DNA of 64,000 bases from Nanohaloarchaea archaeon B1-Br10_U2g1 (GTDB lineage: Archaea; Nanohalarchaeota; Nanosalinia; Nanosalinales; Nanosalinaceae), in contig LKMN01000001.1 in assembly GCA_001563875.1 (NCBI GenBank), forward strand, positions 68,811 to 132,810. The letters are read 5' to 3'. This document shows, in pieces, positions 2,566 through 36,016 of the stretch. The notes beneath the pieces were generated by a model that searched no databases, was not told the DNA's origin, and saw only the letters and a list, made by a program, of their open reading frames with translations. Made by a program: the position numbers and the translations under genes. Each line of letters opens with the position of its first letter. Within the stretch, counting starts at the first letter, position 1.

Positions 2566-2592
2566 TTCACTATCCTTTATCGATATAGGTAT

Positions 2593-8086: not shown

Positions 8087-8239
8087 ATGGAAAAAAGAAC
8101 AGTGCTTCAATGTCCCAAATGCGGAGGAAAGATGGAGTTTAAAGGTTACAGGCCGTTGTTTCCTGACTGTGAGAGATGCGGTTTAAGCCTCCATGTAGAT
8201 GAATGTGATGAGCAGCAGTTTAAGACGCAATTAGATTAA
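8087..8239 (+). CDS. Small CPxCG-type zinc-finger protein (50 aa; alternative in-frame ATG at 8063)
   Basis: Manual translation MEKRTVLQCPKCGGKMEFKGYRPLFPDCERCGLSLHVDECDEQQFKTQLD. Below the ORF-track cutoff. Confidence 0.8.
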   Translation: MEKRTVLQCPKCGGKMEFKGYRPLFPDCERCGLSLHVDECDEQQFKTQLD

Positions 8240-8269
8240 TTTTTAAGATTCGCTAGTGAAATCGACTCT

Positions 8270-9646
8270 ATGGGTATAAAGCAGATAGTAGAAGAGAACA
8301 AAGAGTTTGAACATTCAAAGTTCTTGGATGAACTGAGATCAAAAGACTCTAAGCTAAACTTCATGAGGGAGACAGTCGAACCTGAAGAGAACAACGGTGA
8401 TCTGAATGGAGTACCATTTGTCGTAAAAGACGCTATCTGCACAGAAAATGTTGTAACATCTGCAGGCTCAAAAATAATCGAAGACTACAAACCAGTTTTT
8501 GATGCAACAGTTGTCAAAAAACTGAAAAAGGAAGGAGCAACCTTCTACGGTAAAACAAATCAAGACGAATTTGGATTTGGAACATTCTCAACCAACTGCG
8601 CGTTCGAAACTCCAAAAAACCCTCACGACTCTGAAAGAGTTGTTGGAGGTAGCAGTGGAGGCGCAGGGGCAGTAGTAGCCGCAACAGATTACCCAATAAT
8701 CTCGATAGGAGAGTCTACAGGAGGTTCGATAACAAATCCTGCAGCATACAACGGGGTTATAGGGATAACACCTACCTATGGAAGAGTATCACGTCAAGGA
8801 CTAATAGACTATGGAAACTCGCTGGACAAGATAGGAGTACTCACGAAAACAGTTTATGGTGCAGCTAAAGGGCTGGAAGTAATATCTGGCCACGATAAAA
8901 ACGATCAGACAACAGTGAAAGGCGCAGTGCCTGCGTTTTCAAACAATCTTGAAGAGAGAGAGGACCTGAAGATTGGTGTACCAAAACAGTATATAGAGTT
9001 AGAGGGTATGGAAGAAGGAGTAAGAAAAAATTTTGAAGAGTCACTAGAGTTCTTTAAAGATCAAGGCTTCACAGTTGAGGAAGTTGACGTGCCACTGCTT
9101 GATGCAGATTACTCTGTAGCAGCATACTATGTTATAGCAATGGCTGAAGCTTCAACTAACTTAGCAAGATTTTCAGGGATTCGTTACGGAATGGAGTTTG
9201 ATACAGAGGAATACTCAGACTTCAATGAATACTTTTCAAAAGTTAGAACGGAAGGGTTTGGAGAAGAAGCTAAAAGAAGAATACTACTGGGAACATACAC
9301 TAGACAGGCTGGTTACAGAGATCAGTATTATGTCAAAGCTGCGAAAGTTCGACGTAAGATAATCAACCAGCTAAAGGAAATATTCCAGGATTATGATGTA
9401 CTAATATCTCCTTCAATGCCTAATATAGCACCAAAGATAGAGGAAGCAGAATCAATGAGTCCTGAAGAAGTGTACGCAATGGACACACTTACAGTAGGCC
9501 CGAACCTTGCCGGTATGCCTATGATATCAGTACCCAACGGAACCTCTGAAGGTATGCCAACCGGTTTACACGTAATAGGAGATCACTTCGAAGAACAAAA
9601 GATACTTGACGTTGCGTACACTTTTGAGAGAGGTGAGAAGAAGTGA
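8270..9646 (+). CDS. gatA: Asp/Glu-tRNA amidotransferase subunit A
   Basis: Amidase signature: VKD, GGSSGG, STGGSI, NLARFSGIRYG, GFGEEAKRRILLG. Confidence 0.96.
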   Translation: MGIKQIVEENKEFEHSKFLDELRSKDSKLNFMRETVEPEENNGDLNGVPFVVKDAICTENVVTSAGSKIIEDYKPVFDATVVKKLKKEGATFYGKTNQDEFGFGTFSTNCAFETPKNPHDSERVVGGSSGGAGAVVAATDYPIISIGESTGGSITNPAAYNGVIGITPTYGRVSRQGLIDYGNSLDKIGVLTKTVYGAAKGLEVISGHDKNDQTTVKGAVPAFSNNLEEREDLKIGVPKQYIELEGMEEGVRKNFEESLEFFKDQGFTVEEVDVPLLDADYSVAAYYVIAMAEASTNLARFSGIRYGMEFDTEEYSDFNEYFSKVRTEGFGEEAKRRILLGTYTRQAGYRDQYYVKAAKVRRKIINQLKEIFQDYDVLISPSMPNIAPKIEEAESMSPEEVYAMDTLTVGPNLAGMPMISVPNGTSEGMPTGLHVIGDHFEEQKILDVAYTFERGEKK

Positions 9647-21754: not shown

Positions 21755-23410
21755 ATGAAGCTTGAAGAGGTCGCAAGAAAGTATGCTTTAAAGAACGCTG
21801 TGGAGTACGGCGGTGAATCAAACCCGGGAGCAGTTATAGGTAAGGTGATAAACGAGACAGGGGAAGCGCCTGACAAGGTAGGTAAAATCGCTGGAAAAAT
21901 CTGCGGCGAAGTGAATCAGCTTTCATTAGAGGATCAGGAAGAAGAGCTTGAAAACTACGAGTTTGAGGAAGAAGAACATGAACACGACCCTTTACCGGAT
22001 CTAAAGAATGCGGAGGATGGTGAAGTTGTTGTACGTTTTGCACCGAATCCGAACGGACCGCCACATATAGGTTCAGCAAGAGGAATGTTCGTTAACGGAG
22101 AACTGAAGAATAAGTATGACGGTAAACTGGTTTTACGTTTCGATGACACTGATCCAAGGAACAAACGGCCTCTACCTGAAGCATATGATATGTATCAGGA
22201 GGATTATGAATGGATGGGCTACGAGGTTGATGAGGTTGTACGTAGCTCAGAACAGTTCGACAAGTATATCGAACATGCTGAACAGCTGATTGAAATAGGT
22301 AAAGCCTATGTCTCCAAGACCTCTCCTGAAGAGATGCAGAAGCACAGAAAAGAAGGAACAGCGTCAGAATACAGGAAACAGAGTCCTGAGGAGAACATGG
22401 AACTCTGGGAACAGATGAAGAATGGAGGAATAGAAGAAGGAGAGGCAGTACTGAAAATTAAGACAGATCTTGACCATAAGAATCCGGCTGTAAGAGACTT
22501 TGTAGCATTCCGTATAATAGAGAATCCTGATCATCCGATAACAGGAGACAAGTACCGTGTATGGCCATTACTTGACTTCGCAGGGGCTATAGAGGACCAT
22601 TATACAGAGACTACGCATATTGTAAGAGGAAAAGATCTACGTGCCTCTACTAAAAGACAGAAATACATCTACAACTACCTAGACTGGGAGTATCCTGAGG
22701 TACGTTACTGGGGAACCATTAAAGTATCAGGCTTTGACGCTCCTATGAGCACTTCAACTCTGGGCGAGATGATTGATAACGGCGAACTTAACGGCTGGGA
22801 CGACCCACGCGTCGGAACGGTTAGAGCGTTGAGACGTAGAGGTTTTCAGCCAGACGCCTTGAAAGAGTTCTTCCTGGAGATGGGTGTTACCGAAAACACT
22901 GTTGAGGCAAGTCTTGAAACACTGGAATCATACAACCGGGATATAGTCGAGGATTCTGACCGCTACTTCTACGTAAGAGATCCTGTGAAACTTGAGATAG
23001 GGAATATCCCAGAAGATCTTGAGCCAGAGATTGATAGACATCCTGATTATCCTGAAAGAGGTGTGAGGAAACCTGGTCTAAAACGTGAAGACGGTAAAAC
23101 AGTTGTGTACGTTGAATCGGATGACCTAGAAGACGGTTTCATGAGACTGAAAGGTTTATGCAACGTCAAGGTAGAGGATGGAGAAGCAACGTATATTGAG
23201 GGAGATCACAAAGTAGCTATCGAAAAGGACGCGGATATAGTTCACTGGGTGTCAGAACATGACGAAGCCAGAGTCTTGATGCCTGATGGGAAGGAGTACG
23301 AAGGTTATGTTGAGCCTTTCGATGTGGAAGAAGGCGATATTGTCCAGTTTGAGCGTTTCGGTTTCACACGGTGTGAATCTGGAGACTTGTTTGTCTATAC
23401 ACATGAGTAA
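21755..23410 (+). CDS. gltX: Glutamyl-tRNA synthetase (archaeal type)
   Basis: RFAPNPNGPPHIG, RFDDTDP, THIVRGKD, MSTS, QFERFGF. Confidence 0.97.
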   Translation: MKLEEVARKYALKNAVEYGGESNPGAVIGKVINETGEAPDKVGKIAGKICGEVNQLSLEDQEEELENYEFEEEEHEHDPLPDLKNAEDGEVVVRFAPNPNGPPHIGSARGMFVNGELKNKYDGKLVLRFDDTDPRNKRPLPEAYDMYQEDYEWMGYEVDEVVRSSEQFDKYIEHAEQLIEIGKAYVSKTSPEEMQKHRKEGTASEYRKQSPEENMELWEQMKNGGIEEGEAVLKIKTDLDHKNPAVRDFVAFRIIENPDHPITGDKYRVWPLLDFAGAIEDHYTETTHIVRGKDLRASTKRQKYIYNYLDWEYPEVRYWGTIKVSGFDAPMSTSTLGEMIDNGELNGWDDPRVGTVRALRRRGFQPDALKEFFLEMGVTENTVEASLETLESYNRDIVEDSDRYFYVRDPVKLEIGNIPEDLEPEIDRHPDYPERGVRKPGLKREDGKTVVYVESDDLEDGFMRLKGLCNVKVEDGEATYIEGDHKVAIEKDADIVHWVSEHDEARVLMPDGKEYEGYVEPFDVEEGDIVQFERFGFTRCESGDLFVYTHE

Positions 23411-23411
23411 C

Positions 23412-23798
23412 TTAGAGGGTGGTGACCTCTACTTTGTCACCGTCTTCTAAACCCAGTTTCTCTCTTAACTTTATAGGCGCTATAATCTCTACTACGTTGT
23501 CTTCATAGTCTGTAACATCTATATCTATGTAGTATGCGTTAAAGCCTTCTATTTTTACAGGGTATAGGTCTAGTCCGCTGTAGCCGGTATTGTTCTTTCT
23601 AAATCCAGGAATTCTTGCTTTTTCAGTTGTTTCTGCAAGTTTCTGAGTCTTTTTATCGTCTACGTTGAGGTTCAGTGTTCCTGGGAACGGTCTGAAACCG
23701 GTTTTATCTTTAATTCTTTCTTGATACTCTTCCATGGAGAGATATTCCTTTGCAACCTCCATTCCCGAGAAAAGTCTCCCTTCTAGCCTCACTGTCAT
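23412..23798 (-). CDS. ribK: CTP-dependent riboflavin kinase
   Basis: SGM, GFRPFPGTLN, VEIIAPIKLREKLGLEDGD. Confidence 0.88.
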   Translation of the reverse strand: MTVRLEGRLFSGMEVAKEYLSMEEYQERIKDKTGFRPFPGTLNLNVDDKKTQKLAETTEKARIPGFRKNNTGYSGLDLYPVKIEGFNAYYIDIDVTDYEDNVVEIIAPIKLREKLGLEDGDKVEVTTL

Positions 23799-23837
23799 TC
23801 TATACTCAGAGTGAGAATTTTAATTATAGTGTTTTAA

Positions 23838-24191
23838 TCACGGATCCTGTCCCTTGAAGTCGTCTATCTCGTAGTTTTCTCTCAACAGTTTTTCAACTTT
23901 CTCTAGCCGGTTCATGTCAACCTCTTTGGGCAGATAACGGTTTGGCGAACTAGACTCGGTTCTCACCTTTACAATATCTAGTTCATTTAAGATGCTTAGA
24001 GATGATCCTGCTGCCGGTATGCTCAAGGGAAAGTTTTCTGAGATCTTGTTGGCTGTAAAGGACATATTTTTCTTGACTGTATAATATCTTACAGCGGACT
24101 TCACCAGATAGAAATTGTTGGTGAATACTTTGAACTTTCTAGGATATACGTCCTTAAGCTTTACAGTATCCTGTTTCAGTTTCTCATCCAT
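23838..24191 (-). CDS. Hypothetical protein, probable winged HTH
   Basis: FTANKISENF...AGSSLSILNELDIV...PNRY pattern. Confidence 0.65.
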   Translation of the reverse strand: MDEKLKQDTVKLKDVYPRKFKVFTNNFYLVKSAVRYYTVKKNMSFTANKISENFPLSIPAAGSSLSILNELDIVKVRTESSSPNRYLPKEVDMNRLEKVEKLLRENYEIDDFKGQDP

Positions 24192-24483
24192 CTATACAAC
24201 TTCATTTTACAACCTAACATAGATAAAGATCAGAGATGTTTGTTTTTGAGAAAAATCTGGTATAAAAATAAGAAGTAAAAAGATAAGTTCTGGTAGGTGT
24301 AGAGGTTTTTAGGCTGGTTCTTCTTTTTTCTTTGGTGTTTATTTTATTTTAGTTTTGTTCTCAACGGTTTTGCCGTTTTTTATGGAACTTTTTGTAGTTT
24401 TTTATGTTTCTTTGTTATTTTTCGAGGTATTGGATGGTTGTATCAGGGTTTTAATCTGATGTGAAGTGTTTCTCCTCTTTTTT

Positions 24484-24720
24484 GGAGGAGTTGAGAATTA
24501 TTTTGTTTCGGTCAAGTCCTTGACGTCAAACCCGCTTAGTTGCGGGTTAAATCAGGGGATCCTGACCTACTCCTTCATTATCCTGCAATATTGTGCAGGA
24601 TAAAGCTATATGAGTTATAGAAGTAGCTCACTTCGTCCTTAGACTTCTTGGACTGATTCGTAAATGCGCCGGGACGTGTGTGAGCCATTCGCATATACCT
24701 TACTTGTAGCGACGCATTTA
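24484..24720 (+). ncRNA. Putative highly structured non-coding RNA of unknown class
   Basis: At least seven consecutive hairpins; G-U pairs favour the plus strand; TATA-like TTTTAAT at about 24449. Confidence 0.6.
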
Positions 24721-24860
24721 AAAAAGTTTCTGAGAATGGTAAATAGTTTTTCTCTTATTAGTATCATGGCGATAAGCACCCTATATTGAGGAGATATTTC
24801 TAGAAACTGTTGCCAAACAAAGCGCTTTATATTAAAAGCTGGCCGCTTAACACGATACTC

Positions 24861-25121
24861 ATGGTACAGTTTGAGACAATTGAGAGAGAACGTAAAGACT
24901 ACGGAAACTTTCCTGGAGAGAAGTTTATCGAGGTAAGCAGAAACAAAGTAATCAAAGACAACGGTGATGAGAATACTTTCTTGCAGGTTGCGACAGGTTA
25001 CTACAACAACGATGAAGAACCTCAGTACAAGAAACGTTTTACGGTCCCTACGGATGAGAAAGCAGTAGACCACGTAGTTGAAGAACTGCCAAAGATGTTT
25101 GAAAAAGAAGTCTCAGAGTAA
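24861..25121 (+). CDS. Small protein, possible PC4/Whirly-like nucleic-acid-binding fold
   Basis: MVQFETIE...FIEVSRNK...FLQVATGYY...KKRFTVP followed by a C-terminal helix. TTTATATTAA promoter about 35 nt upstream. Confidence 0.7.
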   Translation: MVQFETIERERKDYGNFPGEKFIEVSRNKVIKDNGDENTFLQVATGYYNNDEEPQYKKRFTVPTDEKAVDHVVEELPKMFEKEVSE

Positions 25122-25154
25122 TCTGACTCTATACTGTTCCGTCATTTATTTTCT

Positions 25155-25910
25155 TTATTGGGTTCTACATCTTGCTAGGAATTTAACGAAAACCAGCCAT
25201 GAGAGAGCTGCCAAAACAAAGCTGTATACAGAGAAAACATGGCTGGATATTTCCGAGTAAACTGTTGAAGTTATAAGAACTAATAGGCCAACAGCTGTAA
25301 GGTATTTTAGAAAAAATCTCTGATACCTAGTGTTCTCAGGTCGAGCATTAGTTATCAGATTCCCTCTTACTTTCAGATCTGAGTAAGGATGAAGCCATTT
25401 GACGCCTGACCTAGTACAGCTGTCCTGAACAAGGTGAAGAAATGCACCAAGTAAATATCCTGACAGGAATATACTCAGAAAGTGTATAGAGAAGAGATCA
25501 AAGAAGATTAGGAAAGGCGTAATATATATACCAGTAACCAGTGTTGAAGTAGATATACCGAGTATAGAATGCATAAAACCTCTATGTTTCATCTTTAAAC
25601 TATTTTCTGAAAAAATAAGTGTGTTGAAGACTATTACTGAAGGTTTGTAGATACAGTACTTTGTTAAATAACCGAATAAAGGGAAAATCAATGCAAAAGT
25701 GTTTAAGGCTGATAGAGGACCGCTATTTCGGAACTCTTTAACCTCTGTATGGAATATAACGGCGTCACGACTATCAATATCTGGTATTAAAGATCCTATA
25801 ATACATCCTGCTATTGAAATTAGTACAGCTTCTGGAAAAATACTAAATAAAGGTATTATTACCATTAGGAACGTTAAAGTAGAAAGTAGAAGGTGATGGC
25901 GCCCTAACAT
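25155..25910 (-). CDS. Membrane-bound metal-dependent hydrolase (YdjM/DUF457-like)
   Basis: GRHH, GSLIPDID, HRGFMHS, HLVQDSCT..GV.WLHP. Confidence 0.88.
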   Translation of the reverse strand: MLGRHHLLLSTLTFLMVIIPLFSIFPEAVLISIAGCIIGSLIPDIDSRDAVIFHTEVKEFRNSGPLSALNTFALIFPLFGYLTKYCIYKPSVIVFNTLIFSENSLKMKHRGFMHSILGISTSTLVTGIYITPFLIFFDLFSIHFLSIFLSGYLLGAFLHLVQDSCTRSGVKWLHPYSDLKVRGNLITNARPENTRYQRFFLKYLTAVGLLVLITSTVYSEISSHVFSVYSFVLAALSWLVFVKFLARCRTQ

Positions 25911-26030
25911 ACTAAAGCTTGCCGTGGCGCTGGCTTATAAAATCGAGACGGTTTCTAAGCTGTAGCTTAACCATGTTTGAAACTGGTGAGAAGGGACAAA
26001 TTAATATTAACTAAGGAAAATTTTCTGAAT

Positions 26031-26942
26031 ATGAGACTAAACAACGCGGTAATCTTCATGGCTATTCTGGCTTTTTCAATAAACTCGGTAGCAGCTTCGG
26101 ACATGTGCGAGGAAAGGATAACGGAGCTTGAGATGGATTTAGAACATAGTTTAGCTGAGGCAGAGTCCCAGGAAGAACAGGAGGAGATAACTGACGAGTA
26201 CGAGATGATGATAAATCAAGTAGAGGAAGAATGCGGGGCACAGGATGATAGCTCTGATACTGTAGAGGAGGTTAGAGATGATATAGATCACGAAGATCAT
26301 CAGGCTTCAACCTCTCTAAGCTTTGAAGAGAGAAAGGAGGAGGTTCTTGAGAGTCTGAATGAGTCCGGCGATTATCTGTATGAGGAGATGCATGAAGAAT
26401 GTGGGGAGCTTGGAAGATCTCCTGAAGAGTATATGGAGAGGGTAGAAAATGCTGAGGATGAGCGCGAACTGGAAGAGGTAATGGGTCAGATGGATGAAGT
26501 AGGTCTAGCTGTACAGGACTGTATTAGACAGTTAGGAGATCATGAAGATTCTGACCAACCCTCTTTCGAAGAAGCCGTTGAAGATGATATTTCGGATCAA
26601 GACTCACCTAATCATGAAGAAGTAACTCCTGAAGACCTTGAAGATATTGAAAAATCCTTCACGGGCCTTAAAGAAGAGCTGGAGAGAAAGAATGAAAGGA
26701 TTGAAGATCTAGAGCAAAGAGTCGAAGAGCTTGAAAATCAGTTGCAGGGAACTAGCCAAGAAACAGATGAACAACAAGAATCTATAGAAGACTCTCTAGA
26801 GAAACAGAGCTCCACGGGCACTGATGAAGAGGTAGATGATAGGAATCAAAGCAGTGAACAAGATGGCCTAGATGCTGAGCCTACAGAAAATAGGTCTCAG
26901 GCGGAAGGACTAGCTAGAAACCTTGCCAACAGGCTGTTTTAG
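26031..26942 (+). CDS. Secreted, very acidic coiled-coil protein
   Basis: Signal peptide MRLNNAVIFMAILAFSINSVAA, four Cys (possibly two pairs), coiled coil ELERKNERIEDLEQRVEELENQL. Confidence 0.8.
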   Translation: MRLNNAVIFMAILAFSINSVAASDMCEERITELEMDLEHSLAEAESQEEQEEITDEYEMMINQVEEECGAQDDSSDTVEEVRDDIDHEDHQASTSLSFEERKEEVLESLNESGDYLYEEMHEECGELGRSPEEYMERVENAEDERELEEVMGQMDEVGLAVQDCIRQLGDHEDSDQPSFEEAVEDDISDQDSPNHEEVTPEDLEDIEKSFTGLKEELERKNERIEDLEQRVEELENQLQGTSQETDEQQESIEDSLEKQSSTGTDEEVDDRNQSSEQDGLDAEPTENRSQAEGLARNLANRLF

Positions 26943-27039
26943 AGGTCTTTACAAAATCTTATTTTCTTCTTTAATTCGCAGTATTAAAACTTAAAGTAAG
27001 ATTTACCAAAAATAGAAACAGCTTTATAGAGGTTTCAAC

Positions 27040-27735
27040 TTGAACTACCAGCTAAGAAATCTTTATCCAGATAATTTCTACATAAATGCTCTAGAAATCC
27101 TAGAGTCTGTCTCTCAGAAGGACTATCCTCCGCTTTATCACAGGATGTCTGTAAAGGCCGTGAGAGGTTTTTATGGTATCAACAGGCGCAATAGACCTAA
27201 TCCTTACAGGCTGGTGTACCTAGAGCCCGGCTCTGTTTCGCTTGTACAAACAGGTGGTAGGGAGGATCACTATACCAGCAGAGGAAGGTTCAATAAGCAT
27301 GAGCCCGGGCTTAGAGGAGGGAAATGGCACGAACAGACTATGCGTCTTGAAAATTCGCAGTTATATACAGGTCTAATACAGAGGTTTAAAGAGGGTTTAA
27401 ACTGGGAGGACACAGCTCTTCACCCAGATAGATATGAAGCAACACATCGGAACCTACCTTCAAGATATGAGGAATATAGCTTAGAAGAATTTTTAGAACG
27501 TGGAGAGCATATTGATAGGTTATACCAGTCTATTAGAGACTATGGATACAGAAATTACGTTGAGAGAAGAGATAGTTTCTGGGACGAGCTTGCTATCAAC
27601 ATAGGTCCGGGAGGAGAGCTTATCCGGAATTCAAGCGGTTTGCACAGGCTGATAATCTCAAAGATGGTGGGTGTAGAAGAGATTCCTGTTAGAGTTCTCG
27701 TTGTTCATCCCAGATTTATTGAGAGTCGCCTCTAG
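27040..27735 (+). CDS. Hypothetical protein with ParB/Srx-like C-terminal motif
   Basis: LYQSIRDYGY...GLHRLIISKMVGVEEIPVRV. Start uncertain. Confidence 0.65.
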   Translation: MNYQLRNLYPDNFYINALEILESVSQKDYPPLYHRMSVKAVRGFYGINRRNRPNPYRLVYLEPGSVSLVQTGGREDHYTSRGRFNKHEPGLRGGKWHEQTMRLENSQLYTGLIQRFKEGLNWEDTALHPDRYEATHRNLPSRYEEYSLEEFLERGEHIDRLYQSIRDYGYRNYVERRDSFWDELAINIGPGGELIRNSSGLHRLIISKMVGVEEIPVRVLVVHPRFIESRL

Positions 27736-27754
27736 TTGTCGATCAGTACAGATC

Positions 27755-28477
27755 TTAGCTTAAGTTTTCAGGAGGGTATTCCTCTGGTTTTAGGTCTCCG
27801 TTTTCTACGAGCTGGTATCTAGAGCAGTATTTTTTCAGCTTAGTGTTTTCACAAGTTGGGTTTCTGGCAGAACAGTTTCTCTTTCCATGCTCTATCATCA
27901 ACATGTGGAAACTGTTTTTGATCTCGTGAGGTACAGCTTCGTTAAGCAGGCTGTGGGCTCTGGTATTTGATGTTGAGAACGGGATTAATCTTAATCTCTT
28001 AGCAATTCTTTCAACATGTGTATCAACCGGCATTACGTCTGCGTTAAAATGGAAGTTCAGAAGTACGCTTGCGGTTTTGGGTCCTATGCCTTTTATGTTC
28101 TCAAGCCATGCCTGGGCGTCTGAGTCGTCCATCTTTCCTAGGAAGTTGACTGAGTAGTCTCCTGTCTCTTCTCTTAGAGCTTTCAGGGTTCTCTGGATTC
28201 TCTTAGCTTTGGTCTGCGGTAGCCCGGCAGGATTAATCGATTTAGCTAGCTCATCTATATTGGCGTACTCTATTTCTTCATAGTCTTTGAAGTCGTTGAA
28301 GAGGTTTTCTGCGGCCCTTGCAGTATTGGTGTCTGCTACGTTCTGTGAAAGTATAGTTATCAAGAGCTGTCTCACACCGTCGCTGTCTCTATCCCATTTT
28401 TGCTCCCCGTAAATATCTAGTAGGTCGGAGTGTATAGCTCTTATCCGTGACTCAGATCTATCTATATCCATCAACAA
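27755..28477 (-). CDS. nth: Endonuclease III-family HhH-GPD DNA glycosylase
   Basis: TILSQN, IKGIGPKTA, PVDTHVERI. C-terminal Cys motif is incomplete. Confidence 0.88.
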   Translation of the reverse strand: MLMDIDRSESRIRAIHSDLLDIYGEQKWDRDSDGVRQLLITILSQNVADTNTARAAENLFNDFKDYEEIEYANIDELAKSINPAGLPQTKAKRIQRTLKALREETGDYSVNFLGKMDDSDAQAWLENIKGIGPKTASVLLNFHFNADVMPVDTHVERIAKRLRLIPFSTSNTRAHSLLNEAVPHEIKNSFHMLMIEHGKRNCSARNPTCENTKLKKYCSRYQLVENGDLKPEEYPPENLS

Positions 28478-28530
28478 AGTTATCGTTCAAAACACTAATA
28501 TTACCTACCTAAAAGTGTTTTTAACTGTTA

Positions 28531-29652
28531 GTGGTAACAACTATGTTTATGCGGAGAGAAGGTTACCACGCCAGAGAATCACCACTGCTAGAGACGAACA
28601 ACTACAGCATACCCCAGCTAGAAGAAGTTATTAGAGAAGACCTATCTGAAATAACTGAGCCAAATGAACTGCTACTAGACTGGATGACGGAGTACAGTTT
28701 CGAAGAATCGGTGAACGAGGAGAATCCATCTTGGTGGAAACCCTCTACAGCATCTATCAATGTTGAGGTAAAGGGAGATAGAACGCTAGAAGCATATGCA
28801 GAAGAAGTCCTAGAAGAACTTAGGACAGAAAGGTACAGAGTCACGGACGACAGCATAGACCCGATGACCGGAGACATGGTGCCTATAGAAGTAACAATAG
28901 GAGACCTGGAACAGAAAAACGGGCTGGTAACCTTGAAAGAAGACACCGGAGAAAGACAGACAGTTGGGATAGAGGGAGCTAGAGAAATACTTTCCGAGAA
29001 AACTCCCAAAAGAGAACACGGTCAAGACCAACCTTTAACCTCCACCCTCAAAGAAGATAGTTTCAGCTACGAGATAACCGCTGATCTAACATCAGGGTTC
29101 TTCGAAGTAGATGCGGTAATGGAAAATGGGAGTGAGCTAAGCTCAGTACTATTCATGCCTTATATAGACAGTGAAGAAGCATTGCTGTTTTCTATCGACT
29201 CCCAGTTCTCAAACGGTATAGACAGCTACAATGTAGACTGGCGGAAAGGAACAAACTATACAGGGAACAAGGCAGTAGACGCATTAACACAGGAGCTACC
29301 TTACTTTGCAGCGTTCGAACAGATACCGACTCAGGAGATACCTTCAGAGGCCATAGAATACAAACAAGAAAACCATTTAAGCCGCGGAACAAAAGACGTG
29401 ATAATCCAAAACCGTGCCTGGAACTCACTGGACGGCTATGATCTATGTAAACAAGATAAGATACAGCAAAAAATCTACAGGATAGCTCTCGGCAAGTCAA
29501 CACCCACAGAACAAAGTAAGAACAGTAATCTAACCCGTATAGGGAACGAGGGACATTTCATAAGGTATCGAGAGAACGAAGATAAAACTATTATACAAGA
29601 GATAGGCCACTACAAGGACGTATTCGACAACCACTCCAAAAGAAGAACTTAG
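28531..29652 (+). CDS. Hypothetical protein with C-terminal RelE/ParE-like domain
   Basis: C-terminal VIIQNRAWNSLDGYD...KIQQKI...RIGNEGHFIRY...IIQEIGHYKDVF. Confidence 0.6.
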   Translation: MVTTMFMRREGYHARESPLLETNNYSIPQLEEVIREDLSEITEPNELLLDWMTEYSFEESVNEENPSWWKPSTASINVEVKGDRTLEAYAEEVLEELRTERYRVTDDSIDPMTGDMVPIEVTIGDLEQKNGLVTLKEDTGERQTVGIEGAREILSEKTPKREHGQDQPLTSTLKEDSFSYEITADLTSGFFEVDAVMENGSELSSVLFMPYIDSEEALLFSIDSQFSNGIDSYNVDWRKGTNYTGNKAVDALTQELPYFAAFEQIPTQEIPSEAIEYKQENHLSRGTKDVIIQNRAWNSLDGYDLCKQDKIQQKIYRIALGKSTPTEQSKNSNLTRIGNEGHFIRYRENEDKTIIQEIGHYKDVFDNHSKRRT

Positions 29653-29855
29653 TAAAAAACCTGGTCATTTCAGCTGGAAATAAGTAGGTTGGTGCTTAAA
29701 AACCGGTTTTAGGTTCGCACTCTGATTAAAACATATATTTTCTGACTTTTTCAAATTATTTTGATAGTTCTCAGCCCTACTAAGAAATTTTTAGCTTAAT
29801 AGACCATATTTAGGCGCTGATTAAATAATAGCACAACTGTTAACTTTCAGTGAAT

Positions 29856-29926
29856 AGCCCCTTTCTGAGTGAGGCTATTCGGGTTCAAAAGCTCACAAAT
29901 ACGTGGATGGCGACCCTGAGATCGTA
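29856..29926. repeat. Junction 1: core plus right arm only (distal array boundary)
   Basis: AGCCCCTTTCTGAGTGAGGCTATTCGGGTTCAAAAGCTCACA...GGATGGCGACCCTGAGATCGTA. No left arm upstream. Confidence 0.85.
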
Positions 29927-29972
29927 TCTGTAATAAGTATAAACAAATGTTTTAACTTATTTGTTGGTTATT

Positions 29973-31229
29973 CTAGACTGGATTAATAGCAGAAACCTCG
30001 GGTATGAATATTAAGGCATCAAAGTTTTCTCTCAGTCTCAGTTTGTCGTAGTGATCTTCAATAGTTTCAAGATGGAAATAAGTTCCTGCAGTATGGAGTC
30101 TGTGTTCTTGAGTTATCCATTTCTTCAGTCCTTCATTTGGTATGCTAGTAAAGTCTAGGAAGAACGGTTCTTCAATGTGATCTAGTTCTTGAGCTAAAGT
30201 ATTCTCGTGTATTTTATCGAATGATTTCTCACCGTTCCATTCCGTCCTTGGTTCTTCCATATTTAGATATTTGAACGATCCTGTTCCGAAATCAAAACCA
30301 ATAGAATAGTAATCTTCTCCATACCTTTGATCTAGGTAGTATCCGAGTGCTTTTGATTCAGGGTTTTCAGGTTTTCCTCCTTTCTTGATGTGAGCGTTAT
30401 GCGCCCAGACAAAAGCGTTTTCTTCATCCTCGAAATCCATCATCCAAGAAATATTTTCCGCCATACATTGATCCCTAAAAGTCCAAGAATCCATATCAAA
30501 TTCAGCATTCTCATTCATAGCCAAACAATACTTTCTACATTGACCAAGTATTTCGACTAACTGCTTCAGTAATCCATATTCCTGTTCAGAAATAGTTTCC
30601 AAATACTCATCCTGTTTCTGCTTGACTTGATTCTCCAAATCTGTGATAAAGTCTCTGAGTTCAGCTTCTTTTTCTTTATCTATTTCTGCAAACATCATTT
30701 TTCCTTCCTCTATAAACTTCAGAGCCTCATCATTTGCTTCAATAAAGTCGCTGTCAACTTCCTGCATTTTTTCTCGCAGCTTCTTGAAAGAAGCAACATC
30801 GTTCTGCATATCAAAGCCATAGAATTTGACTTTCTCATTATCTGAAACCTGCTTATTATATTCTCGAACCCATCCCACCAAGTTCAAAATTTCTTCTGTT
30901 CTGAATATAGGCGAGCTTATCGAACTCAGTGCTTCTTCAGCCGTTCCTTCTCCGTTAACAACATAGTTGTTGATTTCAAGCGTTTCTCCAAACGATGCTT
31001 CCCAAGCAAATATGCGGTAGTCTAACTCTTCAACAAGAAACCGAAAGAATCTGTGTCTAACCCTATGGAATTCTTTGCTGGAGTGTGTAGCTTCACCCAT
31101 ACCAATAATTTTCCTGTTCTCAAGTGTTTCCTTCGGCACTTGGAAGTCTTCAAAAGGATTTTCTGAAGAAATCTTAAGCGGAGTTGAATAAGATTCTAAC
31201 TGATTTGATATATTCTCTTGAGAAGACAT
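29973..31229 (-). CDS. Erythromycin esterase (Ere)-family protein
   Basis: IIGMGEATHSSKEF, FAWE, FYGFDMQ, RDQCMAEN, VWAHNAH, FDALIFI. Confidence 0.92.
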   Translation of the reverse strand: MSSQENISNQLESYSTPLKISSENPFEDFQVPKETLENRKIIGMGEATHSSKEFHRVRHRFFRFLVEELDYRIFAWEASFGETLEINNYVVNGEGTAEEALSSISSPIFRTEEILNLVGWVREYNKQVSDNEKVKFYGFDMQNDVASFKKLREKMQEVDSDFIEANDEALKFIEEGKMMFAEIDKEKEAELRDFITDLENQVKQKQDEYLETISEQEYGLLKQLVEILGQCRKYCLAMNENAEFDMDSWTFRDQCMAENISWMMDFEDEENAFVWAHNAHIKKGGKPENPESKALGYYLDQRYGEDYYSIGFDFGTGSFKYLNMEEPRTEWNGEKSFDKIHENTLAQELDHIEEPFFLDFTSIPNEGLKKWITQEHRLHTAGTYFHLETIEDHYDKLRLRENFDALIFIPEVSAINPV

Positions 31230-31390
31230 AAAACATAAATTTACATTTTCAGGCTTAAATCTCTGGAATTCTCGAAAGATGGTTGAATTGCCGAAGATAT
31301 GTTCTCAGTCCTCTTTTGATGGTTACATCCCTAAACTGCCTACCTGTTGTTACCATAAAGTACTTAAACCTTTGTCTCTAAGTTTACACT

Positions 31391-31732
31391 ATGTCAAATA
31401 ATTACCTTACAGATGGCGGTCAACTTGAATACGATTCAGTCGAAGAAGGAATGAAGCAAGTCCTTAGTAAATACGGAGTTGAGGAAGATCACGCAGAAAA
31501 TCTTGTAACCTTGACTTTTGGAACTCCTGCACTCACAAGAGACATCCCTGAGGGAAAAGAAGAAGTTATGGAAATATACAAAGAAAGTCTTGGGAATACA
31601 GAGTACGAACAAGATTTAGCGGAGGATGTAGATCCTGAACAAGTACAGACAGAATTAGACGAAGTAGTAAGGGAAGGACTAGACGGAGAAATCAGAGGGC
31701 CTGCCAGCGTATCAGATGAAATATTGGAATAA
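31391..31732 (+). CDS. Hypothetical acidic protein
   Basis: 113 aa with N-terminal LTDGG, own TATA-like element and downstream T-tract. Confidence 0.7.
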   Translation: MSNNYLTDGGQLEYDSVEEGMKQVLSKYGVEEDHAENLVTLTFGTPALTRDIPEGKEEVMEIYKESLGNTEYEQDLAEDVDPEQVQTELDEVVREGLDGEIRGPASVSDEILE

Positions 31733-31933
31733 TAGAGAGATTCTATAGGCTCTCCAGCTTTTTTCTTTATTTTTTGACAAACTTTCTTTCAGTAAGAGTG
31801 CCTCTACAGAGGAATTATATGAGAAATTTTAGCATGACCTGTATGACCTTCTAACTAAGCTATAATTCTTCTTAAGACATAAACTATGAATCACCGCGTC
31901 GTCTGTTAATAACTGTAGAAAGATAGCCGTTCA

Positions 31934-32078
31934 GTTCAAAAGCTCATATGAGCAATATCTGAATTGAATTCTGTCATTAGAACTTAATACTTTCAAATAA
32001 TGAGGGAAGCCCCATTTTGAGTGTGGCTATTCAGGTTCAAAAGCCCACAGACTAGCGGATGGTGATCCTGAGGTCGTA
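31934..32078. repeat. Junction 2: left arm, core and right arm
   Basis: GTTCAAAAGCTCATATGAGCA (31934), AAGCCCC (32007), GTTCAAAAGCCCACA (32035), then GGATGGTGATCCTGAGGTCGTA. Confidence 0.88.
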
Positions 32079-32203
32079 TTTATTGTAAGTATAGAAAAAA
32101 TTAATATTTCTTAATCCAATATATTTGAGTAAATTTTTCTCTTTGTTGATATACTTATTATATTTAGGTCCTCTATATTAACTAATTACAGGAGGGCGTT
32201 AAA

Positions 32204-32851
32204 ATGTCGCATCAAATCAAGCCACCAACGGAAGAATTAGAAGAAGCCAAAGAAATAGTAGATACAGCTCTATTGGAAGCAGAAGAAAAACTGCCGATGG
32301 AACAAGAAGTAGTTATAGAGCTGGGATGGACGGAAAGCGACTTCACAATCGAGGAAATGGACGGCTCAAGAGGATTCGCCAAATACCCGAACATTATCAC
32401 TCTGGATTTCAATACTTCCGCAGAAAAATGGCGTGAATCGCTACAAGCTTCTGCCTTCCACGAGTATGCCCATACTTGGGATTATGAGCAGAGAGGTCAG
32501 CAGTGGGATACCAGATGGGAATACATTCTTGGAGAGGCATTAACACAGCATTTCGCTGAAGAGAACGCAGAATACGAATCACCTTGGAGAACCAAACATA
32601 GTAGAGAAGAAATAGCTCAACATTGGTCAAAAATCAGAGATGAAGAACTTGACCACGAATACCAAAATGACGGTGGAAACGATCCGCTATTTATCAACAA
32701 AGGAGACGGAGAATACCCTAACTGGCTCGGCTACACACTATCATACCAGATAGGAGAACAGCTACTTCAAGAATACAGCCTTGAAGACTTCCCAGAACTT
32801 GACAAAGAAGATGTGGTAGAGGCAGGGAACGAAATTTACACTGAATCTTGA
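32204..32851 (+). CDS. Zn-dependent metalloprotease (DUF2268-like)
   Basis: HEYAH, LGEALTQHF, YPNWLGYTLSYQI. Confidence 0.85.
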   Translation: MSHQIKPPTEELEEAKEIVDTALLEAEEKLPMEQEVVIELGWTESDFTIEEMDGSRGFAKYPNIITLDFNTSAEKWRESLQASAFHEYAHTWDYEQRGQQWDTRWEYILGEALTQHFAEENAEYESPWRTKHSREEIAQHWSKIRDEELDHEYQNDGGNDPLFINKGDGEYPNWLGYTLSYQIGEQLLQEYSLEDFPELDKEDVVEAGNEIYTES

Positions 32852-32966
32852 TTTTCAGATTTTTAGTGGTTCTGAGGCCGTGATTTCTGTAAGGAAGATT
32901 ATTACATCGAAATTTTCTGACAATATCTCTTCAATAACTAATTTTGACAAGAAGAAAAAATATCGA

Positions 32967-33106
32967 GTTCAAAAGCTCATAAGAGCATATTTAGAGATAA
33001 AAACTCTGGAAAGCCCATAATGTTGAAGTAAATGTTCTAAGCCCCTTTTTGAGTGTGGTCATTTGGGTTCAAAAGCTCACAAATTTATGGATAGTGACCT
33101 GAGGTC
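32967..33106. repeat. Junction 3: left arm, core and right arm
   Basis: GTTCAAAAGCTCATAAGAGCA (32967), AAGCCCC (33039), GTTCAAAAGCTCACA (33067), then GGATAGTGACCTGAGGTC. Confidence 0.88.
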
Positions 33107-33150
33107 TAGACACCTATTTGCTAATAAATGTTATAATCCTTGTCTAGTCT

Positions 33151-34278
33151 TCATTGTAACTTTCTGTTTAATATTGAACTTATTCTCATAGATAATAATG
33201 TTCTTAGAGGAAGTTCACAGATTTCTTTTACTTCTTCTAGTTCTTCTTCAGGGTTTTCTGATAACCAGCTATAACTAAATAGAATGACAAACTTCAACCT
33301 ATCCGATAACTCTTCCAATTCGATTTCTCCGAAAAAGGCGATTGAACACTGCAGCTCGCCCAGACTTTTTTCGTTGATATGAACCTCAAAACTATCACTA
33401 TCGAAGTACACATTCTTGGGGTTTGGAGGATAATTCATCCCATCTTTCAGGTTTTCTGTCAAAAAGAAGTTATTCTCGGAATAATTTCTACTAAATGATT
33501 CTTTTTGAACGGCTAAATCCCTGATATAGCTAGCTAATTCTTTATCAGTAAAGTTATCCTTTACTTTTTTGATGGGTATTGAATAAGCTCGCAGACTTTC
33601 GAAATCAGGCTGGTAAGATATGGACATTTCAAAATAATGTCGCATAGAGTCGGAATGCAATTCAAAGCCTTTTTCTTGGAAAAAATTATTTAGTTCCTGA
33701 ATAACTTTAGAGTTTGCTATATAGAAATAATCCGATTCTTGATAGTAATCAGACTTGTTACGGGCAGTATCTGGCTGAGAGTATTTTCCCTCAGTTTCGT
33801 GAAATTCAAAATCAGTGTCTTCATATTCTTCAAATAACTGGTCAAGATTCTCAGATTTTTCATAGCTAAAATCGAGATCATCAACATAGGAGATCCCTAC
33901 CCAGTCTTGAATTAAATCAGGTATAACTTTGATGTCATACTTCTGATAGTAGTAATCTTTTAGGAAAGAATAACTGGGACTAGATACAATTTCTAGCTCG
34001 TCAACTTTATCCTCCTTAATCTCCAAAAGTTTTACTAGATTGCCGTGTTCAGTACTTCTCAGGATAGCTAATCTGTCAACTAGATCGCTTAATCTCAGTA
34101 ACTTCTTGTACCTGATAGGCTTTTCATAAAATTTCCATTTCTTCTTAGTATGAACTGTTTGATCATCAACTACTGTTAAATCAGATTTATCTTCTACAAG
34201 CCCTAGATCACCCATCCTTTCCATAGTTTTCTCAGGCTCTTCAGTTTCCATTACTGTAGATTCCCACGACCATCCCAT
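33151..34278 (-). CDS. Hypothetical protein (cassette cargo)
   Basis: 375-aa AT-rich ORF with no recognised motif. Confidence 0.75.
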   Translation of the reverse strand: MGWSWESTVMETEEPEKTMERMGDLGLVEDKSDLTVVDDQTVHTKKKWKFYEKPIRYKKLLRLSDLVDRLAILRSTEHGNLVKLLEIKEDKVDELEIVSSPSYSFLKDYYYQKYDIKVIPDLIQDWVGISYVDDLDFSYEKSENLDQLFEEYEDTDFEFHETEGKYSQPDTARNKSDYYQESDYFYIANSKVIQELNNFFQEKGFELHSDSMRHYFEMSISYQPDFESLRAYSIPIKKVKDNFTDKELASYIRDLAVQKESFSRNYSENNFFLTENLKDGMNYPPNPKNVYFDSDSFEVHINEKSLGELQCSIAFFGEIELEELSDRLKFVILFSYSWLSENPEEELEEVKEICELPLRTLLSMRISSILNRKLQ

Positions 34279-34372
34279 AGAAAAATCAGTTTTACCGCAG
34301 AATTATTACTTTAACTGTTGTTTAGGAATTCTACAATTTACGAGTCAAAACTTGTTTTTGTGTAGAAATAAG

Positions 34373-34451
34373 GTTCAAAAGCTCATACGAGCAGATATAC
34401 TGATAGAAGCTCTGAAAAGTCCATAATGTTGAAGTAAATGTTCTAAGCCCC
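34373..34451. repeat. Junction 4: left arm plus core running into the tRNA-Thr 3' end
   Basis: GTTCAAAAGCTCATACGAGCA (34373); 31 nt CCATAATGTTGAAGTAAATGTTCTAAGCCCC identical to junction 3. Confidence 0.9.
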
Positions 34452-34517
34452 GTCCGAGATTCGAACCCGGGATCTCGTCCTTACCAAGGACGCGCTCTAC
34501 CGCTGAGCCAACGGGGC
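34446..34517 (-). tRNA. tRNA-Thr(GGU)
   Basis: GCCCCGT...ACGGGGCT acceptor stem, anticodon loop TT GGT AA, TTCGAAT T-loop. Confidence 0.96.
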
Positions 34518-34556
34518 GTTAATTAACCAGTGATGTTTAACTCTAATAAACTGTTT

Positions 34557-35438
34557 CTATATAGCGACCAGTGTTACTCCGATTACCAGGATTGCTGATC
34601 CTATTAGCTTGAGTAGTATATGGTCTTCGTTGAACAACGCTCCGCCTGCTAATACAGTTAGAGGCACCTGTAACTGTAGTACAGGTATTACTTTGGAGGC
34701 TTCTGCCTGTGATAAGGCTGAAAGTATAGTTAGGAATGATAATGCCTGTAGTAAACCTATTATAAGGTATTTTACTGTGTTGTCAAGTACTTCTTTTTTA
34801 GATTGGTGAAGGTAGTCTATACCTTGGGTTTTGAACATCCAGATATTGAACAAGACTGCAATACCTGTTATTACAAAGAATGAATGGATTTCCGGAGGTA
34901 TCTGTGTTGTTATGTATCTGTCTGTTACTGCGGCGAAACCGAATGCTGCTGCGGAAAGAACTGCAAACTGTTCGCCTCTATCCGACAAGATGTTTTGGAA
35001 AGGAGAAAGTAAATGGTGAGGATTTTTCAGTAGGACTATATATCCTCCGAAGGTAGCTAGAAGTATTCCTGCTGCCGAGAGAATGTCAACTGCTTCGTTC
35101 AAAAAAATAAAGCCTATTACCGCTACAAAGACTGGTTGCAGCCTGTTCAGAGGCATAACCTCGGAGACAGGATCATTTTTTAACGCGTAGTTGTAGCTGA
35201 AGTAGCCTAAAAAGTTGGTTAAAAGTGATAAAGCTATGAACCCGGTTAGAACAGTTATAGAAGGTATTAGACTGGCTGAAAAGTAGTAAAGGAATACGGG
35301 TAAGTAGAATACCGTTGACAAGGCCATTGTTAGACCTGTGAAGAACGTAGGCGATATATCCTTCATCAGTTCCTTACTTAAAACTGCTATGAACACAAAT
35401 ATGACTGCTGACAAAGCTGCTAGAAAGAACCAGTCCAT
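34557..35438 (-). CDS. EamA/DMT-family transporter
   Basis: About 10 TM segments, two EamA repeats (YALK..PVSEVMP...FLNE; ALSQAEASKVIP...FNE). Confidence 0.9.
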   Translation of the reverse strand: MDWFFLAALSAVIFVFIAVLSKELMKDISPTFFTGLTMALSTVFYLPVFLYYFSASLIPSITVLTGFIALSLLTNFLGYFSYNYALKNDPVSEVMPLNRLQPVFVAVIGFIFLNEAVDILSAAGILLATFGGYIVLLKNPHHLLSPFQNILSDRGEQFAVLSAAAFGFAAVTDRYITTQIPPEIHSFFVITGIAVLFNIWMFKTQGIDYLHQSKKEVLDNTVKYLIIGLLQALSFLTILSALSQAEASKVIPVLQLQVPLTVLAGGALFNEDHILLKLIGSAILVIGVTLVAI

Positions 35439-35468
35439 TCTGTAAACAGTTTCCGAGCTTTCAGTTAA

Positions 35469-35849
35469 TTAAAGTTTGTCTTCAACTGAAAATCTGGTTC
35501 CATAACCGAACTCGTCTTTTACCTCTTCTAGGAACTCGTCTCTCTTAGTATAATCTGGTTGAAATGTTTCAAAGTTCCTCAAGAATGCAGGTCCTTCGTG
35601 TTCTTCTAGCTCATAAGACAGGTTGCCTTCACTGTCTGAGACAACTTTACCGGTATACCTCTCGCCAGGTAGTCTGAGTTCTCCGTACTCTCCATTCCAG
35701 TCTTCTGTTATATTGGTAAGATAGTTTTCTTCCAGTGTTCCCTCGAGATCTAAATCTTTTCTTACATCTTCCCAGAAATCTTCTATAGCTTTCTCTGCTC
35801 TAGTTAGCTCGATCTCTCCAGGTACGCCTGGCTTAACAGAGTAGGCCAT
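35469..35849 (-). CDS. Hypothetical protein
   Basis: 126-aa acidic ORF 5 nt downstream of rpl40e. Confidence 0.65.
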   Translation of the reverse strand: MAYSVKPGVPGEIELTRAEKAIEDFWEDVRKDLDLEGTLEENYLTNITEDWNGEYGELRLPGERYTGKVVSDSEGNLSYELEEHEGPAFLRNFETFQPDYTKRDEFLEEVKDEFGYGTRFSVEDKL

Positions 35850-35854
35850 CTATT

Positions 35855-36016
35855 TTATCCTGCGAACTCTTGGTTCTTCTTCCTAAGATGTTTGTAGCCA
35901 CATTTCCGGCATACGGTGTTCTCAGGGTTGGTGGTTCTGTTCCTTGCGTTACATCTTCTGCAGACGTAGACGTTTCCGAATACACGTTCCTCTGCTTCTT
36001 CGAACTTCTGTGCCAT
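35855..36016 (-). CDS. rpl40e: 50S ribosomal protein L40e
   Basis: Manual translation MAQKFEEAEERVFGNVYVCRRCNARNRTTNPENTVCRKCGYKHLRKKNQEFAG. Missed by the ORF track. Confidence 0.95.
   Translation of the reverse strand: MAQKFEEAEERVFGNVYVCRRCNARNRTTNPENTVCRKCGYKHLRKKNQEFAG

Follow-up and report, generated by a model that had tools for sequence, protein, structure and literature searches.

Cassette array at the tRNA-Thr gene

Nanohaloarchaea have genomes of 0.7-1.3 Mb and are dependent on haloarchaeal hosts, and to our knowledge little has been learned so far about the routes by which accessory genes reach them and pass between them. Here we describe a tandem array of three small gene cassettes that abuts the 3' end of a tRNA-Thr(GGU) gene in Nanohaloarchaea archaeon B1-Br10_U2g1. 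The window analysed is a stretch of 64,000 nucleotides (contig LKMN01000001.1, positions 68,811 to 132,810) and stems from a metagenome-assembled genome (MAG) of 26 contigs and 710 kb, 96.75% complete (labelled G000), whose proteins are strongly acidic. The tRNA-Thr gene, regarded as the attachment site attB, occupies 34446-34517 of the minus strand (ARAGORN; Rfam RF00005, 65.5 bits). The three units at its 3' side have the lengths that had originally been predicted from the sequence alone, and their GC content is 0.345-0.39, compared with 0.416 for the window. Cassette 1 (29856-32007, 2152 bp) carries an Ere-superfamily esterase gene (29973-31229, minus strand; Pfam PF05139 at 1.8e-60, with NCBIfam scores far under the Ere cut-offs) and an acidic open reading frame (ORF) of 113 amino acids (aa) at 31391-31732 of the plus strand. 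Cassette 2 (32008-33039, 1032 bp) holds the gene of a predicted Zn-protease of the DUF2268 family (32204-32851, plus strand; PF10026 at 1.6e-14, HExxH motif), which is also found in genome G015 with 83% DNA identity and no arms, so that cassette cargo can be an ordinary accessory gene elsewhere. The 375-aa ORF of cassette 3 (33040-34445, 1406 bp; ORF at 33151-34278, minus strand) has matched no family over threshold in Pfam, NCBIfam or PADLOC, and a protein atlas has given no lead. Across the three units the main ORFs thus run minus, plus, plus, minus; such genes in either orientation, as had been noted originally, imply no common Pc promoter. Pfam has detected no recombinase in any of the units, in line with the same prediction.

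All four junctions of the array share a core that equals the last six bases of the tRNA, GGGGCU, i.e., five acceptor-stem bases and the discriminator, which reads AGCCCC on the plus strand. It lies at 29856, 32008, 33040 and 34446, and within 23001-36000 AGCCCC or its complement occurs at these four positions only. The preceding base is A at the last three, where the core thus reads as seven bases, and T (29855) at the first. As is usual for tRNA-targeting integrative elements, the tRNA gene is intact and the 6-bp sequence is repeated at every junction. Alongside the core, the 13-mer GTTCAAAAGCYCA is present in six copies, all on the plus strand (29883, 31934, 32035, 32967, 33067, 34373), compared with 0.20 expected in shuffled sequence, and none of 100 shuffles has reached six. 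Relative to the seven-base core, the repeat stands 72-73 nt to the left at junctions J2-J4; on the right side, at J1-J3, its distance from the core start is 28 nt, exactly as first reported. Elsewhere in the 26 contigs of G000 the 13-mer is absent at zero mismatches and hits one unrelated site at one mismatch; arms have likewise not been found elsewhere in this genome.

The 13-mers are embedded in two longer arms. The P' arm extends over ~85 nt right of the core in the order core, TTTTGAGTG.., 13-mer, CACAAA.., GGATGGTGACCTGAGGTC, and the A arm covers ~90 nt or more left of the core, in which the 13-mer is followed by a short palindrome and two subtypes, A1 and A2, can be distinguished. Sequence models of both (R1 for P', R2 for A) have been built and used on whole genomes. 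J1, the distal array end (29856-29939, plus strand), consists of core and P' arm with its 13-mer at 29883 (R1 71.7 bits), and nhmmer has found no A arm to its left. Both arms are present at J2 (31917-32091, plus strand; A2 arm with 13-mer 31934, core 32008-32013, P' with 13-mer 32035; R2 69.8 bits, R1 74.6 bits) and at J3 (32950-33119, plus strand; A1 arm with 13-mer 32967, core 33040-33045, P' with 13-mer 33067; R2 71.3 bits, R1 73.8 bits). At J4 (34360-34451, plus strand) an A1 arm (13-mer 34373; R2 67.1 bits), 89% identical over 79 nt to the left arm of J3, directly abuts the tRNA 3' end at the core. This confirms the half-site pattern proposed before, with the right arm alone at the distal end, both arms inside and the left arm alone at the tRNA.

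The A arm of J2 contains a perfect 12-bp palindrome, GCTCATATGAGC, at 31940-31951 that overlaps the 13-mer, and the 13-mer itself resembles the tRNA-Thr T-arm sequence (GGTTCAAATCCC in relatives). Hairpins of the integron attC kind have been considered for the junctions and rejected. When J2 and J3 are folded as single-stranded DNA, either strand yields z-scores within -0.28 to -1.26, with 19-72 of 200 shuffles folding as well, and the 13-mers are direct rather than inverted repeats. Rfam has recognized no family at the junctions except the tRNA. As the folds are no better than those of shuffles and Rfam is empty, the junctions are neither attC-like hairpins, in agreement with the original view of these sites, nor known RNAs.

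Left of J1 (23001-29855), degenerate older junctions have not been found by nhmmer at E up to 50. The adjoining part, 25977-29855, holds four genes (for proteins of 321 aa and 231 aa, an EndoIII-like HhH-GPD glycosylase and a protein of 373 aa) and no arm remnants; these genes separate the array from homologues of genes which in genome G021 sit 42 nt-1.4 kb from the tRNA-Thr 3' end, and the part they occupy may conceivably be island DNA of greater age. The proteins of the left flank have no homologues near other arrays, and a conserved gene beside the arrays has thus been dismissed as a cis-encoded recombinase.

Conservation and turnover of the modules in relatives

Mapping of cores and motifs in other nanohaloarchaeal genomes and salt-lake contigs, in line with the search suggested originally, has revealed seven further arrays, all at tRNA-Thr genes. 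The units, given from the distal junction to the tRNA, measure 845 and 1446 bp at L071 (the array of genome G071; Thr(GGU) with intron), 845, 259 and 1442 bp at L070 (Thr(GGU)), 686 bp at L066 (Thr(GGU)), 1057 bp at L069 (Thr(CGU)), 967 and 6211 bp at L097 (Thr(GGU)), 800, 1561 and 28,950 bp in G017 (Thr(GGU) with intron), and 972 bp in G033, whose intron-bearing tRNA has by our own reading the apparent anticodon UGU and was assigned no amino acid by ARAGORN. Including the window, all arrays with a visible tRNA end (8/8) stop at tRNA-Thr, and in six of them, at three different tRNA-Thr genes, the A arm meets the tRNA exactly at AGCCCC. The array modules are therefore restricted to tRNA-Thr genes, and the arms, found together with the core in the own genome and in relatives, are not a motif scattered without it.

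At the loci examined, nhmmer has located the P' arm at 16 junctions; the A arm is present at 12 (ten by nhmmer and two in G033), with unrelated cargo beside it. Between junctions and arrays the arms are 71-93% identical. Both are conserved modules that are combined with unrelated cargo. At the level of genomes, R1 has matched 9 of the 70 of the phylum, all in the family of the window, and R2 has matched 4 of the 50 genomes of that family. In public collections, the labelled contigs with near-identical arms belong to Nanohaloarchaea or Nanohalarchaeota. For core plus 13-mer, two of 25 matches in genome contigs are real and 23 are chance hits in unrelated, mostly bacterial DNA, and 39 matches in metagenome contigs comprise seven real loci on five contigs and 32 chance hits. 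The exact 13-mer has given 10 matches in nine of 60 relatives, compared with six for the reversed pattern as control, which means that such matches are mostly chance; the one at position 833422 of G017 is a real junction, and the 13-mer contigs of G033 (C10, C15) show no R1 or R2 match, the arms of this genome lying on contig C22.

Two observations concern the attachment genes themselves. Three of them bear an intron (L100 2330-2470 in G017, L071 ~8232-8406, and L118 7829-7918 in G033); two of these were missed by ARAGORN, and the third is the one left without an amino acid. Furthermore, tRNA-Thr(GGU) lies 0-950 nt from a contig end on six contigs of five relatives (G022 C46 and C36, G028 C13, G016 C12, G032 C53, G067 C32), a position that would be predicted from a repetitive or variable 3' side in the populations sampled.

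The genes found at tRNA-Thr are not invariant, and arrays differ both in how many cassettes they hold and in the cargo. The 14 complete small cassettes of all arrays range from 259 to 2152 bp and carry mutually unrelated genes in either orientation, among them those for the esterase, the DUF2268 protein, a type I phosphodiesterase, an RsmC-like methyltransferase, a HEAT-repeat protein and several unknowns. L070 and L066 are embedded in matching flanks (89.8% over 1386 nt on the left, 89.9% over 218 nt on the tRNA side) and contain three cassettes and one, respectively; the segment distal to the cassettes differs as well. L070 and L071 have the 845-bp cassette in common (93% identity) but not what adjoins it on either side. 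Shared cassettes are distal and the tRNA-proximal ones differ in this one comparison of L070 with L071, which fits entry at the tRNA-proximal side. Transfer over a larger distance is seen for the esterase module of the window (29856-31277, comprising P' arm, gene and upstream region), which in blastn is 89.6% identical over 1424 nt to the 1561-bp cassette of G017, a member of a different genus; the DNA identity of conserved chromosomal genes between the window and other genera (G025, G071, G017) is 64-73%, and for core genes of the two genera that share the module it is 65-73%. In G017 and in a contig of the public run X3 the esterase module runs straight into an A arm; in the window the two are set apart by 650 bp that include the 113-aa ORF; position 31277 is a breakpoint also in X3 (loose end) and X5 (joint). 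Cassettes have thus turned over between related genomes, and one of them has spread across genera.

Public salt-lake contigs (runs X1, X3, X5 and X8; contigs, not raw reads) have further been compared with the window at a likeness of 90. X1 is possibly the source sample of the window and gives no independent support. In X5 and X8, cassette parts are covered and the chromosomal flanks of the window are without cover, which has not been counted as evidence. Joints with sides below 30 have been treated as weak (29897->33087, 29897->34446, 29958->34147, 31277->34445, 32006->34445). In record 28 of X8, a run of another study, the tRNA is followed by 736 other letters, a J2-like core with P' arm and other sequence (side 59). 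In X1, X3 and X5, position 33106 (end of the P' arm of J3) is joined to 32955 (start of the A arm), which results in a 152-bp unit consisting of arms only (sides 42-69). Likewise, no ORF reaching 45 aa is present in the 259-bp unit that two cores enclose at L070 (reverse complement, 3816-4075), and together the two units suggest that empty cassettes exist. A weak joint in X1 (32006->34445, side 23), whose seven shared letters are the core, would place cassette 1 on the tRNA, and X3 contains mosaic joints between different P' arms (29897->33087 and 33049->29915, sides 20 and 34).

Candidate integrases and the origin of the array

The original prediction had proposed to look for a co-occurring recombinase, and a matching family of tyrosine integrases is present in arrays of relatives, complete in G017 and truncated at L097 and L066. 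In G017, a tyrosine recombinase of 461/472 aa (PF00589, 1.6e-17) is encoded directly beside the intron-bearing tRNA-Thr, with a left arm of another type (B) between them, which has an inverted 13-mer-like motif ~25 nt from the core. The recombinase belongs to the 28,950-bp element, whose far end is formed by core and P' arm and which further encodes an MCM helicase, a second tyrosine recombinase, GmrSD, large helicases and a HerA-like ATPase. With a GmrSD-type restriction endonuclease (L112 17786-19552) and helicase-like proteins of 1040 and 1245 aa (L113 93-6952), this 29-kb element looks like a carrier of defence genes. A second element is found on contig C14 of G066 (21,954 nt), where the P' arm (76-153) and a homologous integrase (~21.0-21.7 kb) lie at opposite ends. 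L097 retains a 284-aa fragment of a tyrosine recombinase beside the tRNA, which stops ~20 residues past the box-I arginine and is accompanied by a type B arm; its full-length relatives (51-56% identity) are those of G017, G073 and G066. At L066, an ORF of 383 aa beside the distal core (1739-2890, minus strand) is chimeric and combines the N-terminal part of the integrase, up to the box-I TGAR, with a REC/PAS-like part; at the corresponding place L070 has two membrane-protein genes. A pseudo-core within the integrase gene has been discarded as the cause of these truncations: GGGGCT encodes part of the TGAR box in G017, and L066 is without AGCCCC there.

The identity of the family to integrases of archaeal viruses is 21-26%, IMG/VR contains a 25% relative only, and junction DNA has found no match in a phage collection. 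The candidate integrase scores under the NCBIfam cut-offs for the integron type (31.1 vs 265 bits, TIGR02249) and for archaeal XerA (48 vs 220 bits). Within the genus of the window, an integrase of 33% identity has been found at a contig start in the other genome. For the own genome, PF00589 and PF00239 have given no match at E<=1, tblastn with three integrase queries has reached a best E of 0.46, and the L097 fragment used as query has found no match. No Xer-type gene has been detected in G000 on this basis, and PF00589 is found at E<=0.001 in 34 of 49 other genomes of the family.

Taking these observations together, we consider it fairly probable that the array consists of non-autonomous cassettes that owe their insertion at the tRNA core to an integrase provided in trans. 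The earlier reading of a trans-acting recombinase that stockpiles cassettes is in substance supported by the variable content, the arms associated with the core and the candidate integrase. In the proposed mechanism, a circular cassette would carry one composite double-stranded site, composed of the A arm (13-mer at -73, palindrome), AGCCCC and the P' arm (13-mer at +27). Strand exchange within AGCCCC would be catalysed by a tyrosine integrase from another locus, likely that of an MCM-type integrative element which shares core and P' arm with the cassettes, and 6 bp fits the overlap length of tyrosine recombinases. Insertion would keep the tRNA intact, leaving A arm, core and tRNA on the proximal side and core with P' arm on the distal side; a crossover region confined to the last 6 nt of the tRNA would need no longer tRNA copy to keep the gene intact. 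Further cassettes could then enter at a core, presumably the tRNA-proximal one, so that the stack would grow. A distal junction with P' only, inner junctions with A and P', and a tRNA junction with A only are expected from successive insertions of such circles into the core of the tRNA. As judged from their sequence, the 13-mers are putative binding sites of the integrase or an accessory factor. The A arm may also supply the tRNA 3' trailer and a T-run terminator, a role that would add to its conservation. The common core and P' arm, present in cassettes as well as in the 28,950-bp element of G017 and the C14 element of G066, tie the cassettes to integrase-bearing elements. On the left side the two differ, the small cassettes carrying A1 or A2 and not the integrase-side arm B, and this distinct, conserved A arm makes the cassettes a class of their own.

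Several results weigh against insertion in trans. Two array-bearing genomes lack a tyrosine recombinase, G000 (at E<=1) and G071 (at E<=0.001, 77% complete). The B-type arm on the integrase side is unlike the A arm of the cassettes, so that the integrase is only presumed to act on A-type sites, and the left arm is neither A nor B at five junctions (L071 367 and 1212, L070 2971 and 4075, L097 1210). A free attP has been sought in IMG/VR with three patterns, giving one chance match and then none. Circles of the cassettes, which the original prediction had assumed, are not seen in public contigs, and neither are an excision product nor an empty-site allele of the strain. Among the listed pieces of public contigs, J1 and J3 are never bridged by at least 31 nt, and the exact order of the cassettes in the MAG contig is thus not independently verified. 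Between the esterase cassettes of G000 and G017, divergence is greater in the P' arms than in the cargo, which fits recombination within the arms. Finally, the decay of integrases within the arrays (L097, L066) is the route expected for remnants.

This last point leads to the explanation that the units are immobile fossils, i.e., full integrase-bearing elements that have lost integrase and backbone. The truncated integrases (284 aa beside the tRNA at L097; the N-terminal part fused to a REC-PAS ORF at L066) and the own genome without a recombinase agree with it, as does the report that integrated archaeal elements are often without an integrase, presumably by loss, and can be tandem (PMC8371274, available text). 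On the other side, none of the 14 small stretches shares an ORF with the six integrase-bearing stretches sampled, which share a backbone among themselves. Nor would decay account for an A arm, conserved at 12 junctions beside unrelated cargo, in place of arm B, for cassettes that recur whole in different arrays with breakpoints at the cores, or for the 152-bp arms-only unit in three runs. That full elements decay is evident from the truncated integrases, and some units may be accounted for in this way; as the general origin of the array we regard it as unlikely.

Still less probable appears a scenario in which one or a few site-specific insertions have been followed by homologous recombination between the junction modules of 70-180 nt, no dedicated recombinase being involved. 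Arms that are 71-93% identical between junctions and arrays offer substrates for it, the esterase P' arm diverged beyond its cargo looks as if arms had been exchanged, X3 contains the mosaic P' joints, and module exchange between tandem integrated elements is mentioned in the accessible part of a review (PMC8371274). For efficient recombination, however, the arms are short and diverged, and the abutment of A arm and tRNA at AGCCCC in six arrays and three tRNA-Thr genes would need site-specific insertion each time or common descent; the conservation of both arms across genera and the fixed distance of the 13-mers would be left unexplained. Recombination between arms probably contributes to the shuffling of cassettes. 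It seems very improbable that the repeats are non-mobile and have a regulatory or RNA function, or that the array is an artefact of chimeric assembly between repeats of the bin. The 26-contig MAG, the missing bridges of at least 31 nt over J1 and J3 in the listed public contigs and the tRNA-Thr genes at contig ends in several relatives agree with such an artefact, yet the same architecture is found in independent assemblies, among them a single 1.03-Mb contig (G017) and contigs of several other projects. Rfam matches to the tRNA alone and folds no better than shuffles speak against an RNA element, and half-sites at both array ends are unexpected for a regulatory repeat. Misassembly could still affect the exact order of the cassettes in the MAG.

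Relation to known cassette systems and tRNA-borne elements

The likeness to integrons, including those reported from Archaea (10.1101/2022.02.06.479319), lies in small, recombinase-free and mostly single-gene units with their own sites, which form strain-variable arrays with diverse cargo at one fixed site. The construction is different: bipartite double-stranded arms of ~180 bp with direct 13-mers are found instead of imperfect-palindrome attC hairpins, and the fixed site is the 3' end of a tRNA instead of attI beside intI. An IntI gene adjacent to the array is absent, as G000 has no PF00589 match, and the cassettes are not arranged in one orientation behind a common promoter. The term integron-like may hence be kept to denote a functional analogy and does not imply membership. 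The main text of the same preprint on archaeal integrons makes no mention of Nanohaloarchaeota (10.1101/2022.02.06.479319).

Tycheposons of Prochlorococcus, as characterized in the available text of the preprint (10.1101/2020.12.28.424599), likewise inhabit small streamlined genomes as tyrosine recombinase elements at specific tRNA 3' ends; successive integrations push older elements outward, niche genes make up the cargo, and the island is strewn with degenerate remnants and att repeats. Tycheposons encode an integrase of their own, a tyrosine recombinase of the tycheposon clade or a large serine recombinase, and in most cases replication genes too; the present cassettes have neither. Tycheposon repeats consist of partial tRNAs, whereas here the tRNA contributes no more than 6 nt. 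A dedicated class of integrase-less cassettes with arms of its own is not described in that text.

Cis-mobilizable elements (CIMEs) are known from the accretion of integrative and conjugative or mobilizable elements in streptococci, where elements free of recombination genes and with related att sites stand in tandem at a tRNA gene or a conserved gene 3' end and are thought to be mobilized in trans. Two of their three features are found here: the att sites of the cassettes and of an autonomous element are related through core and P' arm, and scans of the cassette ORFs with Pfam, NCBIfam and PADLOC have shown no recombination or transfer genes. Mobilization in trans, the third feature, is presumed. 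Unlike CIMEs, the cassettes reside in an archaeal host, measure 0.26-2.2 kb with usually one gene, involve no conjugation, and possess a conserved left arm that differs from that of the integrase-bearing element. In the pdif (Xer) modules of Acinetobacter plasmids, recombinase-free gene modules are arranged in arrays and 28-bp dif-like sites serve the host XerC/D. Discrete modules without recombinase, bounded by sites for an enzyme encoded elsewhere, are common to both systems; here, long arms surround a tRNA-derived core in place of 28-bp dif-like palindromes, and no Xer-type gene has been detected.

Archaeal integrative elements fall into those whose integrase gene stays whole after integration and those of the SSV (Sulfolobus spindle-shaped virus) type, in which the gene is split. 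The 29-kb element of G017 resembles the former by its full integrase beside the tRNA, its MCM gene and its direct repeats of the tRNA end at both borders, unlike the window units, which have no integrase or replication gene, only one or two genes and a 6-bp repeat. In its accessible sections, the review on archaeal tyrosine recombinases treats tandem elements and integrase loss, not DPANN archaea or cassette arrays (PMC8371274). A preprint on nanohaloarchaeal viruses and satellites describes no integration at tRNA-Thr in the part at hand. Consistent with the original statement that no such system was known in DPANN archaea, the literature search has found no published description of one, with the reservation that integrated elements or sites of nanohaloarchaea might appear in supplementary tables (10.1101/2025.02.15.638363; 10.1101/2022.02.06.479319).

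The array provides a concrete and testable route of gene flow in DPANN archaea, with modular sites, turnover and one cassette that is 90% identical between genera. Its long double-stranded arms around a 6-bp tRNA-derived core would represent a third design of cassette systems beside the attC hairpins of integrons and Xer/pdif. In a more far-reaching and tentative interpretation, to which we give somewhat less than even credence, one may postulate a nanohaloarchaeal equivalent of the integron, in which single genes with a ~180-bp bipartite site (A, AGCCCC, P') circulate between genera of ultra-small symbionts and are stockpiled at tRNA-Thr by tyrosine integrases borrowed from MCM-type elements, while the arms double as tRNA 3' trailer and as T-arm-mimicking binding sites of the integrase. 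If true, Archaea would have solved the capture of gene cassettes independently, by means of double-stranded sites. Sites and integrase are defined well enough for synthesis and assay, and a tool for site-specific integration in halophilic archaea could be built on them.

A different arrangement is seen on contig C7 of G068 (L023), where two full copies of tRNA-Thr(GGU) (782421-782492 and 789892-789963) lie 7.4 kb apart. This locus is probably due to a different type of element, in which the entire tRNA is duplicated, and a homologue of the esterase (72% aa identity) is encoded ~9 kb beyond the tRNA-Thr copies.

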